The translations under genes were made by a program, and so were the position numbers. The notes under the pieces were generated by a model, which did no database searches, had not been told where the DNA came from, and worked only from the letters and a program-made list of their open reading frames with translations. From an uncultured Hormoscilla sp. (GTDB lineage Bacteria > Cyanobacteriota > Cyanobacteriia > Cyanobacteriales > Desertifilaceae): DNA of 64,000 nt. Of this stretch, positions 18,134-56,119 are shown piece by piece. How positions within the stretch are numbered: the stretch's first letter is position 1; every line of letters begins with the position of its first letter. The DNA is taken from positions 3,008,001 to 3,072,000 of the forward strand of contig OZ001293.3 in assembly GCA_963921275.4 (NCBI GenBank), in the 5' to 3' direction.

Positions 18134-18339
18134 GGAAGCCTGGCGATCGCTACTCCCTTCCTGAATATTTCCATTTCTCTACGTTTTGTAAATTCGTAAC
18201 TTTACTTAACTGGCTCTTCTGGGTTTATAGTGGTAAATGTATTTTCTTATATATTTTTGCGAGATCGAAAAGGCTAAAACCCTTGATTTTGCGTAATCAT
18301 AAGTTTTGCTTATCACCCAAAACCCAGGAGACCCACTTA

Positions 18340-18493
18340 ACTTAAGTTGCTACCTACAGAACCTCAGCACCCACATTCGCCAAAATTCGCGCCTCTTGCC
18401 TTGTAATTTACCTCAAAATGGCATTTTTCTAGATTAATTTGGCAAAAATTGCTGTCTTCCAGGTCAAAAATTTTATCTTGTTGCAACTTGGGT
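18340..18493. mobile_element. 154-bp MITE with IS982-type TIRs, copy 1
   Basis: Ends ACTTAAGTTGCTACCTA...GCAACTTGGGT; same length as, and homologous to, 48863-49016 and 54930-55083. Confidence 0.8.
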
Positions 18494-18562
18494 TTACTTA
18501 TCTTTGGAATTGAACTGCAATCGCCAAAGCCTTCTGGTGGGCAGTGCCCACCCTACAGATTA

Positions 18563-46699: not shown

Positions 46700-47240
46700 A
46701 AGTATGAAACTAACTAAACTAATGAGGTCAAGTAGAAGAGGAGCATAACTGCAGGGAAAGGAAAATCACGTCGTACCGGACGTCAAGAAAGCAGTGCCGC
46801 TTCCTCAAAAAAGAAATTGCGCATATTACTCTGGAGCAAACTGCCAACTACAACTGTCAGCTATAGGAGAGTCTCAAATTATTCCCAACGTAACGCTCTT
46901 GAGCGACAACTTGCACACCCTGTGTTTCTACTATGCAACAGCGGAGTTCATTTAAAAAATTGTCGAACGGCTTAATTTTAGACGGCGACAATTTTGAGCC
47001 ATTCCGGAACGAATTGTTATCCAGGATATCCAGCGGATTGTCATTACCCACACCAGATAACTCTACTGGTTCAGATGAGAACTGGTTGAGCACTTATGTC
47101 AACACAATGGGGTCTTCATCTTGGTTCTCAACTCGTGCGGTCTCAGTCCAAAGCATGAGCAAGTACCGGATATGCTGTCCATCGGAAGTTGCTTCAGTTA
47201 AGGGCTATACGGCACAGAGCAGTATCGAAAAGAAGAAATC
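46700..47240 (+). pseudogene. tnpA: IS607-family serine recombinase TnpA, degraded
   Basis: Broken frames: VSYRRVSNYSQRNALERQL...LNFRRRQF...IQRIVITH, directly upstream of TnpB. Confidence 0.65.
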
Positions 47241-47241
47241 C

Positions 47242-48375
47242 ATGAGCTACGGAAAGAATCCGTTTAAGCGCAGCAAAAATATTACGCCGAACAGCGTTCT
47301 CAAAATTCCGTTGTTTCCAGAACCAGAATTGCATAAGATTTGGAAAAAATGGCTAGCAGTATACCGTTGGGTTTACAACCAGTGTGTGGAATTCTATAAC
47401 AATGGACGAGCGCTGTCAGAGAGGCAATCTTTAGACCAGTACATACAGCAGTTGCAAAATTTGCCCGAAAACGACTGGACTAAGTGCCTCGGTAATACTA
47501 GGCAAGAAGCTGTTTGTGAAGCTCAAAATGCCAGTCGTCAATCACGCCAAGCTAATGGCGGCAAGTGTTTCCTGAGTTTCCGCTCTTGTAAAAACAAGTC
47601 CCAGGCTATCCAGTTCAAGAACAGTGCATACAAAAATGGAACGTGGTTCCGCTCGGAGATTAGGAACTTACAATTCGCAATTGCTAAAGGCTACGAGTTA
47701 CCAGCTAACTGTGTATACGGAACTGAGTTACTCTATCAAAGAGGACAGTGGTTTGCTTGCTTTCCGCAATACATCCGGGAGGTAACGACAGGCTCTGATC
47801 GCGTAATTGCTCTAGACCCAGGTAACCGTACTTTCCTAACTGGCTACGATGGAGAGAACATCTTAGAGATTGGCAGGGAAGACATCGGGCGGCTGACGAG
47901 GCTCTGCCTGCACCTCGACAAACTCGTTGGAAGAAAGATGAAAGCCACGGGTAAAGTAAACAAGCGGTTTCGGTACAAGTTGAGCAAAGCAATTGATCGG
48001 CAGAGGTCTCAGATTCGAGCGCTGGTGGATGACCTACATCGGAAGGCTGCTAGCCTGCTTGTCAACAGTTACAAACTGATATTTTTACCCACTTACAAAA
48101 CTTCTCAAATGGTTGTTAAAGCCAACCGCAAGATTAATCGGAAGTCGGTTAGAAATATGTTGACTTGGGCTATGAGCAGATTTGCCTCTCATCTGGAGCA
48201 AGCAGCTAAGAGAAAAGGAGTGCTGGTCGTCCGCTGTAACGAGGCTTATACTAGCAAAACTTGCCCCAAATGTGGTCACATCCACAAGCAACTTGGTGGC
48301 TCCAAAGTTCACAAATGTCAGGCTTGCGGTCATAAAGCACCGCGAGATTGGGTAGGCGCTCTCAACATAATTTGA
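47242..48375 (+). CDS. tnpB: IS607-associated TnpB RNA-guided nuclease with rearranged (Fanzor-like) RuvC
   Basis: RWVYN, IALDPG, IFLPTY, NEAYTSKTCPKCG...CQACG...RDWVGALNI. Confidence 0.88.
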   Translation: MSYGKNPFKRSKNITPNSVLKIPLFPEPELHKIWKKWLAVYRWVYNQCVEFYNNGRALSERQSLDQYIQQLQNLPENDWTKCLGNTRQEAVCEAQNASRQSRQANGGKCFLSFRSCKNKSQAIQFKNSAYKNGTWFRSEIRNLQFAIAKGYELPANCVYGTELLYQRGQWFACFPQYIREVTTGSDRVIALDPGNRTFLTGYDGENILEIGREDIGRLTRLCLHLDKLVGRKMKATGKVNKRFRYKLSKAIDRQRSQIRALVDDLHRKAASLLVNSYKLIFLPTYKTSQMVVKANRKINRKSVRNMLTWAMSRFASHLEQAAKRKGVLVVRCNEAYTSKTCPKCGHIHKQLGGSKVHKCQACGHKAPRDWVGALNII

Positions 48376-48488: not shown

Positions 48489-48863
48489 ATGGACCCTGAT
48501 GAGGATTTAAGTTTGTATAAGATTACAGATAAATTGGATGTCGCCTGTGAGACAATCAGCCATTTTTACCGGGTCTTTCACTCCAGCCGCTACGTGAAAG
48601 AAAAATTAGTCATCCGGCTGAAAGAAGAACTAAAAGATGTCGATATTGAGCAGTTAAATGCTGAGTTTAGCGACATCCTCGTATCCGGAGCCATAGAAAA
48701 GACTAAAGCCTTACCAGCAGAATCTCAAGACGATACCATTGATTTACCCCGCCTGGTTTTACATTTTAATCAGCGAAATTTTGGACGCTTATACCATCTG
48801 ATTGCTAAGATAAATCAGATGGGAGTTCCCTCACCGGCATTGGAGCATCCAGAAAAAAAATAA
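48489..48863 (+). pseudogene. LOG-family protein C-terminal remnant
   Basis: DLSLYKITD...FYRVFHSSRYV..LVIRL...LNAEFSDIL...LPRLVLHF. Confidence 0.6.
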
Positions 48864-49016
48864 CTCAAGTTGCTACCTATAAAAATTTCTACGTCCGAAA
48901 CAGCCATTTTTTGCAAATTTATCCACAAAAATGCCATTTTGGGGTAATTTACAAGGTAATATCGGATCATATAGGTTGATTTTGACGTTGATTTTCTATC
49001 TTGTTGCAACTTAGGT
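48863..49016. mobile_element. 154-bp MITE with IS982-type TIRs, copy 2
   Basis: ACTCAAGTTGCTACCTAT...GCAACTTAGGT; near-TSD AAAAAATA/TAAAAATA. Confidence 0.8.
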
Positions 49017-49213
49017 TAAAAATAATTTTGCACAACTACTTACCTAATCTATCTGAGAAACGCTATATTTCAGATACATCAGTAGACCATTGCCGAAACT
49101 AGGGTTCGTAGTTGCGCACATAGCGCCTATATGCTCTGCGGTTGGCGCTAAAGCGCAACAACTTCCCTTAGATTACAGGTATTACCAGGATTTGATATCA
49201 CTGGTCACTGACA

Positions 49214-51180: not shown

Positions 51181-53395
51181 CTATAGCCAAAACTGCCGAT
51201 CGCCCTCCAGCATGCCGGTGGGATTTATACCGTGTAACCGCAGATAAGCCATGCGATCGGATCCATAGAGTGGCATGGGCAAGCGTGGCGATTTTAACGC
51301 GCCATGATGCAACAATGTCAGTTTCAGGGTAGCTTCTACTACAGTTTCGATCGATACTTGGTGTCCTTGTTCATGCACCGTCAAACGCAGGGGACGCGCC
51401 AAACCAACATTAGCAGAAACCTCAGTCGTTATGACAATAGCTTCCCGATCGGATAAGCGAAGTGCCAATCCCTTTTTTGGTGCAGTCACTACTTTCTGGT
51501 TCAGATTGTACAGTCGAGGAACGTAAGACTTTCTGCACTCCACTAAAATAAACTTCGAGTCAATTGCCTTTGCCCATTCCAATAAATTATCAACTTCATT
51601 GCCACAAAAACGTCCGTCCCGGTAGATCAGAACAGTTTTGCGTTGCAGTTGAGATGCAGGTAGCAAGGTGTTCAAAAGCTGTGCTGGAATTTCTTCTCCT
51701 TCAATTATCGCATCTTCCAGATGGTAGCGAATGAACTCTCCTCGCCGTCCATAAACACGAATGCTTGCACAGGCATTTTGACTTCCGGATACGTTCTTTT
51801 TGGCAACTCGGGAAATATCCAAGCCAACGAAATAATCCGCGACCTCTAAAGGTTCAGCTAGAATGAAAGGCAAGTTCCCCAGTTTTGCCAGAACCCCTGG
51901 AATCACCTGATTGAGAACGTAGTTGGTTTGCACCTTCAAGGTTTCCTCATAAATCACTTGGCTCAATCCCGCGTCGAAGCAACCGCGAGTATACCCAATA
52001 ATATAGACTGCCGTCCTCTTCCCGATCGGAGTGGCGATCGCTCTCGGGCAAAAAGGTAAAAACAATGTCAGGGGTCGGCACAAGCAATTCATCAAGCGCT
52101 TTTTCAACTTCCGCTTTTGCCTTTGCAGCACTCAACTCCTTGACTGACAACTGCTTCGTATTAATAATTTTGCTCTCAAAATCATAGCGTTTTAGCTGTT
52201 CTTGAACTTTCTTGAGAAATGGAGTTAGCTTGCGATCGCATAATTTCAGAGCTGCAATACGGATTTGTTGCTGATTATCTCGGTATTCATCGTGACGGCG
52301 ATAAACACCTCCTGTAGACAAACCATTGAGAATTTTACCTGAGGCGCGAGTAACCTTTTTCCCGAAAAGAAGTGGGGTTTGCTCCAGGGGAGTCGATGGT
52401 TGCCAGAATAAAGATGGGGAATCTTTGCTGTTGATACTACGCTGTAGCTCAAATCCATAGGCTGCTAGAGCAGGATTCGCTATTTTCTTGGAGGAGTCAA
52501 CCAATAGTTGTTGCCGCTGTTCATGGGAAATTTTAGTTTTCTCGATCAATTTTCCATATTCCACCTCAAAACTCGCAGCTGTTTCAGAGGTAATGCAAGG
52601 ACGTAAAGCCGCCATCGCATAGTAATACGGCTTCCCATTCTTGCCAAATTGTACCCCCACCAAGGGTTGATTGTCAGGCGCATCTCGCAGTGCTTGTTTG
52701 CTGACTGCACCTGTCGCCTTTTCGATTAATTTTTCCCGGTGTTCTCCAATTTTGCCGACAATAGCGCCAATAGTACCGCTACCTCCAGATTCAATGTTTT
52801 GAACTTTCAAACCAATTAAAAGTTCTTGAGGATTTTGCCGGAAGGGATGATTATTGTAGAAATCAGCCAAGTTCCCCTTATAGAGGATACTGCTGCGAAC
52901 CGTTATAGTTACAGCAGGCCGTAATTTACCGTCGAGTTCGATGGTTTCTGACCAAATATCAACCTCGCGCCTGACTTCAACTCCTTTGTCAGAGAAAACC
53001 ACAGGTTGCTCGAATTTTGTTTCCCTTAAGACTTGAACGGCCAGTTGAGCTATAATTAAAGGAGTTTCCTTTGGCTCGCGCACCCCTTGAAATGACCAGT
53101 AGCGATCGCCAATCTCATCTTTTAAATCTTCTTGGATATTTTCGAGTGCCTTTTTCAATTCAGCTTTGTCTGGCATAGTACTACCTGGTTTGGCTAAAAT
53201 CCAAAAATATGATTTTTCCCAGATAGCAACTATATCGGGAAACTGGCGACTAAACCGGAAAGCTAAGCGGTTTCCCTCCTGCCGTTCCACTTCAGGTGTC
53301 AGTCGAAAACAGATTAAATTCGGCTGCGAGATAGTTAAGGGGAAAATCTCGCTCAAAAAGATGGGAGATGTCTGAACTTGAACTTGAGTAGTCAT
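51181..53395 (-). CDS. ago: Long prokaryotic Argonaute (~740 aa when joined), DEDD tetrad; frameshift near 51965
   Basis: ORF 51947-53395 covers the N to MID region. ORF 51181-52131 carries SQVI, GVLAKLG and the PIWI motifs [37 protein letters not shown]. Confidence 0.9.
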
Positions 53396-54206
53396 GCGGA
53401 AACCTCAGAAACAGAAAATTTACAAATGGAATTAAAGGCACAGTAGCGACAAGCAAAACCGGGGTTTGGTGGAAAAACGTTTGCGAAGCAAGCAGAGTTT
53501 TGTCGGTAACGTCTCAAATCTTGCTGATGCTGTTTGGCTATTTGTGTCAACTCGCTCTGAATGGCTCGCAGTTGGGCATTTGTCGCCTTAATATCCTCAG
53601 ACGCTTTACCGGTTTCCAAGTTATAGAAAGAGGCGATCGCTGGTTGTTGCGGATAGAGATAGCGGGCGGCTAGCAGGTAAACAAATGCCTGTCGGCGGTC
53701 AAAATCTGATTTACCCGTCTTGAAGTCTAAAATATGCAGCGTGCCGTCAGGCTCAGTAAAAATACAGTCGATCGCCGCAAAGAGGTTAAAGAAATAGTTC
53801 CCTTCCCGGATTAAAATAGGTGTGGGATATCCCTCATCACCTCGACGATGTTCTTCCCAAGGAGAATAGGATTTTCACGGTACTTTTTGAGGATGGCAGT
53901 CACTCGCGCCTGAACTGTAGCTGACTCTTGAGACAATTGCAAAATCTCTGCCACTTGCTCGACAGCATCTTTTCTGTACAAGATCGGGGAGTTCTGATGA
54001 AACTCGTAAACCCCCTTTTGGGCGAGAATGCCAATCCGCTGAGCTGTGTTGTCTTGCTCCAAGAGCGCTTTAACTTGGGGTTCTTTCTTGCGAGCCTTAG
54101 TGAAACCCCGCTTCATATCACAGTGCCAGTATTCCTGTCCTACTGGTGGAGAAAACAAAGACCAGAGATTATAACTGGCAAATTGCCAAATTTTATTTTC
54201 GATCAT
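53392..54206 (-). CDS. Cas4-like PD-(D/E)XK nuclease (Argonaute-associated, ACE1-like); frameshift near 53845
   Basis: N-terminal HCDMK; second frame AAIDCIF...HILDFKTG...RRQAFVY...[10 protein letters not shown] (1+3 Cys Fe-S staple). The stop overlaps the ago start (ATGA). Confidence 0.85.
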
Positions 54207-54291
54207 ATATCACATCTCACTTTTTTTGTCAACCAATTCTGCTGAACAGCTGAACAGACGCTCCAGCATGAAAAGGAGAGGGTTTCGGTCT

Positions 54292-54906
54292 CATAGGGCC
54301 AAGTATGAGCTGCCCTGGCCGAGGTAGCAAACCACCGGCGTTACGTTGACTGATTTAGCCAACCAACGACGATGCTAACTTATGTTGACTAATATCGTCA
54401 ACTCAGAGGATGAAAACCTTGCCATAGGGCCAAGTACAAGCTGCCCTTGCCGGGGTAGCCACCGATTTAGTTGACTAATTTAGCCAACCCGCTTCGATGC
54501 TAACTTATGTTGACTAATATCGTCAATCCAGAGGATGAAAACCTTGCCATAGGGGTTAAGCACAAGCAGCCCTGGCTGAGGTAGCCACCGGTTTAGTTAA
54601 CTAATTTAGCCAACCCGCTTCGATGCTAACTTATGTTGACTAATATCGTCAACCCAGAGGATGAAAACCTTGCCATAGGGGTTAAGCACAAGCAGCCCTG
54701 GCCGAGGTAGCCACCGGTTTAGTTGACTAATTTAGCCAACTCGCTCCGATACTAACTTAGGTTGACTAATATCGTCAACCTAGAGGATGAAAACCTTGCC
54801 ATAGGGCCAAGCACAAGCAGCCCTGGCCGAGGTAGCCACCGGTTTAGTTGACTAATTTAGCCAACTCGCTCCGATGCTAACTCATATTGACTAATATCGT
54901 CAACCC
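54292..54906. repeat. Tandem array of five ~125-bp units upstream of the nuclease-ago operon
   Basis: Unit starts (CATAGGG) at 54292, 54423, 54548, 54674 and 54800; highly similar, with no unique spacers. Confidence 0.95.
54345..54904. promoter_or_regulatory. Ten 19-bp palindromic operator-like sites GTTGAC-N7-G(T/C)CAAC
   Basis: Type A GTTGACTAATTTAGCCAAC at 54345, 54470, 54596, 54722, 54847. Type B GTTGACTAATATCGTCAAC at 54384, 54509, 54635, 54761, 54886. A few copies differ by one base; the A-to-B offset is always 39 bp. Confidence 0.7.
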
Positions 54907-54916
54907 TTAGTATGAT
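54887..54916 (+). promoter_or_regulatory. Putative sigma70 promoter of the XRE-peptidase operon
   Basis: TTGACT-N18-TATGAT, with the -35 inside the last palindrome. Confidence 0.55.
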
Positions 54917-54929
54917 TAGTAAGTAAGTA

Positions 54930-55083
54930 ACCTAGGTTGCTACCTATAGAACCTCAAAACCTTGCATTAGCCAAAATTGGCAAAAATTGCCTTGTGATTT
55001 ACCCTAAAATGGCATTTTTGCGGAGAAATTCACCAAAAATGGCTGTTTGGGACGTAGAAATTTTTATAGGTAGCAACTTGAGT
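54930..55083. mobile_element. 154-bp MITE with IS982-type TIRs, copy 3
   Basis: ACCTAGGTTGCTACCTAT...ATAGGTAGCAACTTGAGT. Confidence 0.8.
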
Positions 55084-55112
55084 TAATGATTTAAGTAAGT
55101 AGGGAAAAAACC

Positions 55113-55478
55113 GTGAATCAGACGTTTGGCAAGGTTATTCGTCAAGCCCGCAGGGACAAGGGATACAGCCAGCGCGAGCTAGCCAAGTTGATAGGGGTGA
55201 ATTATACCTACCTATCCAAGCTAGAGAACGACCACGCTGGGTATCCTCCTAGCGAGGAGGTCATTGAGTGCTTAGGGCGTCATCTAGAATTGGACGAAGT
55301 CGAGCTAAAATACTTAGCTGGCAGGATTGCGCCGGAAGACGAGGAAGTTTTTAAGGAACTTGTCAAGAAGTATAAACAGATGCCTGCTTTGCTCCGCCGC
55401 ATGCGGGACAATCCTGATTTTGTCCAAAAATTACTTCAGGAAGTAACCCAAGTAGAAAAGGAGGAGGAGCCGTTTTGA
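55113..55478 (+). CDS. XRE-family HTH transcriptional regulator
   Basis: IRQARRDKGYSQRELAKLIGVNYTYLSKLEND. Confidence 0.92.
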   Translation: MNQTFGKVIRQARRDKGYSQRELAKLIGVNYTYLSKLENDHAGYPPSEEVIECLGRHLELDEVELKYLAGRIAPEDEEVFKELVKKYKQMPALLRRMRDNPDFVQKLLQEVTQVEKEEEPF

Positions 55479-56119
55479 ATGTAATCAAGCCCTATCGCTT
55501 CATTCCCAAGCAGGAAATTGAGCGTCAGGCTAACAACCTTCTCAAGCAAATGGAGGCGACGCCAAATTTGGCACCCAAATGGCCTTTTGATGCTACTCGC
55601 GTGGCTGACTTTTTGGATCTAGGTGTTGTCTGGGACACAATAGAGCCTGATGAGGAAGGGCCAATTGCAGCTATGATTCTGCCGCTTCAAAGTGAAATTG
55701 TAATAAATGAAAATATTTCAGCAATACATGGAGGCTTTGGCGAATCAACATTAGCCCATGAAATTGGACATTGGGAACTTCATATTGACCATAACGCGGT
55801 TGGTAAGTTTTTATATCGCAGAACGGATGGGATCGAAAAAACTATTATCGCGCCGTTTTTATGTCGTAGCGATACCATTCAGAAAGGGATTGAATGGCAA
55901 GCTCAGTATTTTGCTAGTTGTTTACTGATGCCTCTTGATAAGTTAGAAGAAGTGCGCATAGGGCGCGTTCTAACGAAATGGTCTCACCTTTACGCTATAA
56001 AAGATGAGCTTGGTATCACTATATCTAATCTGACAAACCGTTTGCAAGATATTGATTGGATTCACATTCCCAAAAATTCTAAGCAAATTTATCTGGGAAA
56101 AGCTGCGCCTGGTCGGTAA
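55475..56119 (+). CDS. ImmA/IrrE-family metallo-endopeptidase
   Basis: TLAHEIGH (HExxH) and EWQAQYFASCLLMP; the start overlaps the XRE stop. Confidence 0.9.
   Translation: MNVIKPYRFIPKQEIERQANNLLKQMEATPNLAPKWPFDATRVADFLDLGVVWDTIEPDEEGPIAAMILPLQSEIVINENISAIHGGFGESTLAHEIGHWELHIDHNAVGKFLYRRTDGIEKTIIAPFLCRSDTIQKGIEWQAQYFASCLLMPLDKLEEVRIGRVLTKWSHLYAIKDELGITISNLTNRLQDIDWIHIPKNSKQIYLGKAAPGR

Follow-up and report, generated by a model that had tools for sequence, protein, structure and literature searches.

Results

Organisation of the locus

The DNA analysed here is a stretch of 64,000 nucleotides (the window) from an uncultured Hormoscilla sp. It contains, on the minus strand, an operon in which a Cas4-family nuclease, ACE1, is encoded directly upstream of a long-A Argonaute (pAgo) and, diverging from it on the plus strand, an operon encoding an XRE-family repressor and a zinc peptidase. 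The region between the two operons is largely taken up by an array of five tandem units (Table 1), delimited at 54292-54906 by Tandem Repeats Finder (period 126, 4.9 copies, 90% matches, score 934).

Table 1. Features of the array and the flanking operons, in window coordinates
Feature	Position	Strand	Remarks
Long-A pAgo, APACE1 clade	51181..53395	-	broken by 2-bp deletion near 51963
ACE1 (Cas4-family PD-(D/E)XK nuclease)	53392..54206	-	broken by 10-bp deletion near 53843
Unit 5 (gene-proximal)	54268..54402	-	operator B 54384-54402; -10 TAGCAT; operator A 54345-54363; leader runs on to ACE1
Unit 4	54403..54527	-	operator B 54509-54527; -10 TAGCAT; operator A 54470-54488; leader
Unit 3	54528..54653	-	operator B 54635-54653; -10 TAGCAT; operator A 54596-54614 (one arm change); leader
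Unit 2	54654..54779	-	operator B 54761-54779; -10 TAGTAT; operator A 54722-54740; leader
Unit 1 (XRE-proximal)	54780..54904	-	operator B 54886-54904 with -35 TTGACG; -10 TAGCAT ending 54874; operator A 54847-54865; ~67-nt leader
Predicted promoter of XRE-peptidase operon	54887..54916	+	TTGACT-18-TATGAT; only at right end of array
~158-bp dispersed MITE-like element	54928..55086	.	inserted in XRE leader with 10-bp direct repeat; joint 54919/55092; outside array
XRE-family HTH repressor, 121 aa, intact	55113..55478	+	Pfam HTH_3/HTH_31; PADLOC capH, E 1.2e-9
M78/IrrE-like Zn peptidase, 214 aa	55475..56119	+	HEIGH motif intact; Pfam Peptidase_M78; PADLOC capP, E 3.7e-14

Each unit contains two 19-bp palindromes, A and B, with B starting 39 bp past A, and the starts of successive A palindromes lie 125, 126, 126 and 125 bp apart. 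Palindrome A is imperfect, reading GTTGGC/GTCAAC on the minus strand, and the third A reads GTTAAC. A consensus scan located TTGACG-18-TAG(C/T)AT on the minus strand at exactly five sites, one per unit and facing ACE1-pAgo, with the -35 hexamer inside palindrome B; in all, six promoter-like sites were found compared with 1.5 +/- 1.2 in shuffles. With the consensus matched in 5/5 units, each repeated unit holds a complete putative promoter, and spacing alone would place the transcription start (+1) at palindrome A. The last operator B supplies, with its opposite half, the plus-strand -35 box of the predicted XRE promoter (at 54887), such that a single palindrome spans both divergent -35 boxes, and the same divergent-promoter geometry is present at related single-unit loci. 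The gene-proximal unit is 79-81% identical to the other four, which are 90-95% identical among themselves. A preliminary description of this DNA had noted the five tandem ~125-bp units, the paired 19-bp palindromes, the promoter-like sequence directed towards the nuclease and Argonaute genes and the greater divergence of the gene-proximal unit, all of which we found to hold, and we likewise reject a CRISPR array because the repeats lack unique spacers. No terminator-like site was found inside the array and an Rfam scan of 53500-55600 gave no match at E<=1.

We rejected an assembly artefact, since short-read contigs cross the unit junctions and arrays are present in two genomes of the same genus. 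The contigs, from runs X1 and X4 (possibly the source sample), cross the junctions with identical letters, although none covers the full array. A MITE or other dispersed repeat was rejected for the unit because it is confined to one locus: a search of the 7.0-Mb genome for a second copy gave only one chance 21-bp match, and no operator pair is present at any other genomic site. Non-coding tandem arrays of period 60-250 number 27 in this genome. As side observations, a 480-aa ORF with a Cas12f1-like/TnpB C-terminal domain is present at window positions 46933-48375, and contig C3 of G000 (31,420 bp) has a G+C content of 17.6%, as against 42-49% in the other contigs, and is probably foreign to the genome.

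The ~158-bp element beside the array does belong to a dispersed family: about 30 long copies and numerous short fragments of its ends are spread over the genome, and other window copies lie at 48861-49020 and 18338-18494. It is missing from this site in two relatives. Here it separates the predicted XRE promoter from the XRE start and may alter the level of the repressor. We rejected as unlikely a composite transposon with the inverted copies at 48861-49020 and 54928-55086 as its ends, given the ~30 copies of the element and the absence of the right-hand copy in relatives that retain the locus.

ACE1 and pAgo are frameshifted

An intact relative's ACE1 matches PADLOC Aga_Cas4-like_Nuc (E 8e-145), the two pieces of the broken pAgo match PADLOC pAgo_II (E 2e-204 and 5e-153) and the N-terminal part of a relative's pAgo matches CtAgo (PDB 9IAD, E 5e-156), which is the only solved relative of this pAgo at E<=1e-5. 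By the PADLOC and CtAgo matches this is the same two-gene operon as APACE1, the cyanobacterial system of long-A pAgo and ACE1 (PMC12094033). Unlike the described system, both genes are frameshifted in this genome, by a 10-bp and a 2-bp deletion called relative to two relatives, and the locus thus lacks the intact reading frames of an active APACE1. The preliminary description had correctly positioned the array before a Cas4-like nuclease-Argonaute operon but had overlooked both frameshifts. Contigs of X1 and X4 match the window letters over 3,400 bp, deletions included, and X5 and X6 carry the missing bases. The pAgo gene is interrupted in 4/4 same-genus assemblies that have it, by different lesions, that of G002 (a +1 in an A-run) being possibly a read error. 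Between species, dN/dS is 0.13-0.30 for ACE1 and about 0.5 for pAgo, which suggests past purifying selection on ACE1 and weaker selection on pAgo.

Other APACE1 loci differ in their first genes. In many operons a conserved ORF of ~70 aa lies immediately upstream of ACE1 (L041:3736-3957 and 21 other loci); it has no above-threshold Pfam match, is missing from this genome and is possibly a third component of the APACE1 system. In another subset (L037:3354-3989, L005, L143, L144 and L169) an MMADHC-like gene (PF10229) opens the ACE1-pAgo operon. A second, distant PIWI-like match (34% to the C-terminal part of pAgo) was observed at G000:C1:2991693-2992535 (L309) and is also present in G001, G003 and G004.

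The divergent XRE-peptidase pair resembles CapH/CapP

The locus combines an HTH repressor and an HExxH zinc peptidase divergent from a defence operon, and the XRE protein is predicted to bind the palindromes of the array. The HEIGH motif is invariant across 22 peptidase sequences, and a profile of these has CapP (7T5T) as its only solved relative at E<=0.01. The structural model of the peptidase (pLDDT 89.5) consists of the peptidase and helical domain only, and its best structural matches are CapP (Foldseek E 2.7e-6) and IrrE (3.4e-5), with TM values to 7T5T of 0.53/0.42. CapP, as described, has 291 aa with a C-terminal GAF domain as the last of three, whereas the 214-aa peptidase leaves no room for a GAF and none appears in the model. 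Since the single-stranded DNA groove of CapP involves the GAF, the signal that activates this peptidase is uncertain.

Related pairs occur elsewhere. A paralogous XRE-peptidase pair is present at G000:C1:918255-918578 (L028), where the palindromes have an 8-bp spacer, and paralogous XRE loci, which precede a different operon, in many cases carry three or four sites spaced ~37 bp apart. Several Nostocales APACE1 loci (L044, L047, L050 and L054) have a longer XRE leader, and most of them have two tandem peptidase genes.

The palindrome accompanies XRE and not Argonaute

Among 80 ACE-like loci from named genomes, pAgo is present in 28, and 24 of these 28 have a divergent XRE gene, nearly always followed next by the peptidase. 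We pooled four surveys and dropped seven loci with <400 bp upstream and 20 duplicates; of the distinct loci that remained, 89 have XRE and ACE together and 94 have XRE with no ACE gene within 1.4 kb. A site of the TTGA-N8/9-TCAA type lies <=200 bp from the XRE start at 77/89 of the former and 90/94 of the latter (about 2 expected by shuffling in each case), that is, before 167/183 XRE genes whatever their cargo, counts that are to be read knowing that the pattern was written after the loci had been seen and that the loci are kin. By comparison, sites <=400 bp from an ACE gene without XRE are at chance level (1/4 ACE-pAgo loci and 3/50 solo ACE loci, with 2.0 expected). This contrast shows that the palindrome travels with XRE and not with Argonaute.

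A single-copy version of the unit geometry, with two N9 palindromes ~95 and ~55 bp before the XRE start and a -10-like hexamer between them, is present at L037, L038, L125, L127, L141, L143 and L150, and near-identical single cassettes occur in other genera (for example L037, L125, L141 and L143). The array unit is therefore the normal bidirectional promoter, palindrome B holding both -35 boxes, or in other words the ordinary promoter/operator between an APACE1 operon and a divergent pair of XRE and HExxH peptidase. These comparisons of sequence show that XRE-peptidase and ACE1-pAgo are usually separated by just one cassette, whose palindromes overlap two predicted sigma70-type promoters of opposite direction. 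When 401 genomes of the phylum, many of them non-photosynthetic or picocyanobacterial, were searched with an exact-arm tandem-operator pattern, only the genome under study was returned. Viral collections yielded 0 operator pairs, one weak XRE match and 15 matches to a 17-mer that we take as chance.

The cassette was multiplied within one genus

Array DNA was found in only 3/14 genomes of the family, with five units in the genome under study, three in G002 and eight in G003. Close ACE1 relatives among named records are Hormoscilla sp., a genus of sponge symbionts (PMC6520454); in one of these, L036, both xre and the array are gone. A single clade (97/99) unites the gene-proximal units of the three genomes, which share 88-94% identity with one another and 72-85% with the other units. 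These orthologous end units imply that the first duplication is older than the species split, and an ancestor of three species of the genus thus multiplied the cassette together with ~67 nt of leader.

Outside the genus an operator-containing repeat is absent from 85/86 XRE+ACE loci, and none was found among the 94 XRE loci without ACE. The sole outside case, L214 (G514, from another family), is an independent duplication with two 152-bp units before an intact 737-aa pAgo. Its repeated leader is the start of an MMADHC-like gene, of which only the start survives, and is unrelated to the leader of the array; what was duplicated is therefore the promoter and operators plus whatever follows. A 135-bp duplication in the corresponding leader was also observed in a Prochloron record, L055 (1515-1813), the operator not being included. 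The array is thus not a general component of pAgo systems. The preliminary description had proposed to look for copy-number variation, which is borne out by the three, five and eight units, and had reasoned that single units at homologous loci would point to strain-specific slippage or an assembly artefact, and genome-wide dispersal of the unit to a MITE. Most homologous loci outside the genus do lack the repeat, yet strain specificity, an artefact and a MITE are all rejected for the array.

Operators are conserved and the leader hairpin is not

By parsimony on a tree of the 16 units, the operator arms underwent 6 changes in 24 columns, compared with 99 in the 81 other columns (binomial p 2e-6), a rate of change roughly one-fifth of that at other positions; when only the 10 strictly internal units are counted, the figures are 3/24 and 55/81 (p 3e-4). 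As controls, 442 and 798 out of 100,000 randomly drawn sets of four hexamers were equally conserved, as were 1 and 0 out of 124 shifted masks. The mismatch in palindrome A is retained in 16/16 units and was never corrected, which argues for recognition by a protein as opposed to self-repair of the palindrome. Within the six columns of the -10 hexamer there was one substitution (p 0.007, 0.03 and 0.09 for three unit sets), and the hexamer is kept in 14/16 units, being deleted wholly or partly in 2/8 units of G003, in which operator A is also partly lost in 2/8. Significance is overstated by these p-values, as the units are kin, were delimited by cutting at operator B and may have been homogenised by gene conversion. 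The substitution patterns nonetheless show the operators to be selectively constrained, with the predicted -10 more weakly conserved in the extra copies.

The ~55-nt imperfect hairpin of the preliminary description folds as drawn in four units of this array, but weakly (z -0.2 to -2.3); the gene-proximal unit has a deletion of the 3' AGGT arm. Across units z ranges from +1.0 to -4.8 with a median of about -0.8, the majority of values being close to -1 or weaker and three units lying above 0, and two units lack the 5' arm. Paired positions underwent 32 changes in 36 columns and unpaired positions 20 in 19 (p 0.32; 0.32-0.57 over tests), and RNAalifold, which kept only four pairs of the drawn hairpin, found 0/21 pairs to be compensatory. 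In the drawn hairpin 85% of cells pair and two pairs are changed on both sides, a result equalled by 3/500 shuffles in a control that ignores kinship; one of the two, from U-G to C-G, was scored against a tie, so that a single compensatory change across the 16 units is clean. Covariation supporting a conserved secondary structure, for which the earlier description had suggested a check, was thus not found, nor was any leader of similar fold or sequence at the other APACE1 loci. A leader frame of 15-17 codons is present in 9/13 non-proximal units and disrupted in the other 4. The idea that the leader is a remnant of the usual first genes (the small ORF or the MMADHC-like gene) was rejected, there being no significant profile match (best E 0.34). 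Because the operator arms are conserved while the stems change as fast as the loops, we infer that the array works as DNA and is not a small-RNA array.

Discussion

To our knowledge, little is known of how pAgos are regulated in their native hosts. The most probable reading of the array, to which we assign a probability of roughly 0.6, is that one lineage amplified the operon's normal promoter/operator cassette in tandem and that the resulting array acts as DNA. This agrees with one of the two proposals made from the sequence in the preliminary description, that of stacked, repressor-gated promoters, in that the palindromes are both a family-wide feature of XRE loci and the best-conserved part of internal units. 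By analogy with CapH/CapP, ImmR/ImmA and DdrO/IrrE, XRE dimers would occupy each palindrome; this would block the -35 box (at B) and the start region (at A) in all copies and would also repress the XRE gene itself. A DNA-damage or infection signal would then activate the peptidase, XRE would be cleaved, and all copies could fire and read through into ACE1-pAgo, giving a higher induced output with a basal state that would still be silent. Given that the output genes are frameshifted here, the array is now either a relic or still held silent by the intact XRE.

Stacking may or may not bring an adaptive gain. Long retention, conservation of the -10 hexamers, the separate duplication before an intact pAgo and the purifying selection of the past speak for a gain; the 27 non-coding arrays, the breakage of pAgo in 4/4 same-genus assemblies and the attenuation of tandem promoters speak against it, as synthetic tandem promoters can attenuate instead of adding (PMC11339919). 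The strongest rival, which we consider unlikely but worth weighing, is that the array is a neutral by-product, brought about without any gain by slippage or unequal recombination in a genome prone to repeats, the operators being kept only to silence additional live promoters while the locus decays. The abundance of other arrays in the genome fits this account, as do the broken state of the system in all four same-genus assemblies that have it (with array and xre deleted in one), the occurrence of such a repeat at only 1/86 other XRE-ACE loci, the internal deletions in units of G003 and the fact that the two palindromes are themselves near-direct repeats. However, the array has survived at least two speciations and the gene lesions differ in each lineage, which means that it coexisted with an intact operon; the -10 hexamers are conserved although loss of the promoter would silence a copy equally easily; and the dN/dS values of both genes between species also weigh against neutrality.

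A third account, in our view improbable, treats the ten sites as an operator reservoir or looping platform that mainly titrates or oligomerises XRE, thereby sharpening the switch or tightening gene-proximal repression, with little transcription from the upstream copies. The operators are better conserved than the promoters, some units of G003 have operators yet no -10, paralogous XRE loci carry several regularly spaced sites and CapH is reported to form tetramers (10.1101/2022.04.27.489752). A global titration role by this consensus is nevertheless unlikely, as the operator pair is confined to the array locus, and 14/16 units retain the -10 hexamer. Least probable of all, and very doubtful, is the other proposal of the preliminary description, an array of separately transcribed structured small RNAs acting with pAgo or ACE1, each de-repressed unit yielding a short hairpin RNA (or leader peptide message) that feeds or tunes pAgo-ACE1: although every unit has its own predicted promoter, several units have the bulged hairpin as their MFE fold (one at z -4.8) and a short U-run follows the stem in internal units, the folds are generally weak, the stems are no more conserved than the loops, the 5' arm is lost in two units, the leader of L214 is unrelated, neither Rfam nor other APACE1 loci provide a counterpart and APACE1 pAgos are described as using DNA guides (PMC12094033).

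With CapH/CapP (10.1101/2022.04.27.489752; 10.64898/2026.05.16.725639), DdrO/IrrE and ImmR/ImmA the locus shares an HTH repressor and an HExxH zinc peptidase placed opposite a defence operon with a common promoter region. CapH has been shown on one 22-bp site upstream of the -35 box, whereas here a palindrome pair lies over both -35 boxes and the promoter is multiplied; and the cargo is an Argonaute, unlike that of the CapH/CapP systems as described. Argonaute is unmentioned in the text of either CapH/CapP paper, whose supplementary tables of associated operons may bear on the point, and the main text of PMC12094033 mentions no XRE, IrrE, peptidase, helix-turn-helix, transcriptional regulator, native promoter or array, although the schematics in its Fig. 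1C-D or Fig. S1 could show a regulator. A search that reached little of the subscription literature found no paper linking CapH, CapP and Argonaute. It seems that this repressor has not previously been tied to Argonaute.

Among known element types, the array is closest to the promoter tandem repeats of M. tuberculosis (dop, lpdA and cysG), in which a whole promoter is repeated head to tail with a copy number that varies between lineages and for which tuning of expression has been proposed (PMC12817950). Head-to-tail repetition of complete promoters (predicted ones in the present case) and lineage-variable copy number are common to both, but the M. tuberculosis units, as described, are short (~57 bp in dop) and fast-varying, whereas the units here are 125 bp long, 5-20% divergent, older than the species split and provided with two repressor sites each. 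The array is thus a genus-level elaboration of a known element type, and the system to which it belongs is in decay in these genomes. CRISPR arrays and the RNA arrays of type III toxin-antitoxin systems likewise place non-coding repeats immediately before a nuclease gene. In contrast to these, the units of the present array have no unique spacers, no conserved RNA structure and no Rfam match, and each has its own predicted promoter and operators.

The ten operator copies under selection provide a natural footprint, outlining the operator as GTTGAC-N7-GTCAAC together with the -35/N18/-10 geometry, and the array is a natural setting in which to ask whether repressible promoters, when stacked, add to or interfere with one another. 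More generally, from their gene order and upstream sites many APACE1 systems seem to be controlled by a CapH/CapP-like pair with a predictable operator. The divergent XRE gene at 24/28 ACE1-pAgo loci and at 89 loci overall predicts that the Argonaute immunity of cyanobacteria is inducible, probably by DNA damage or infection, and the defined operator site makes the native regulation of pAgo directly testable.
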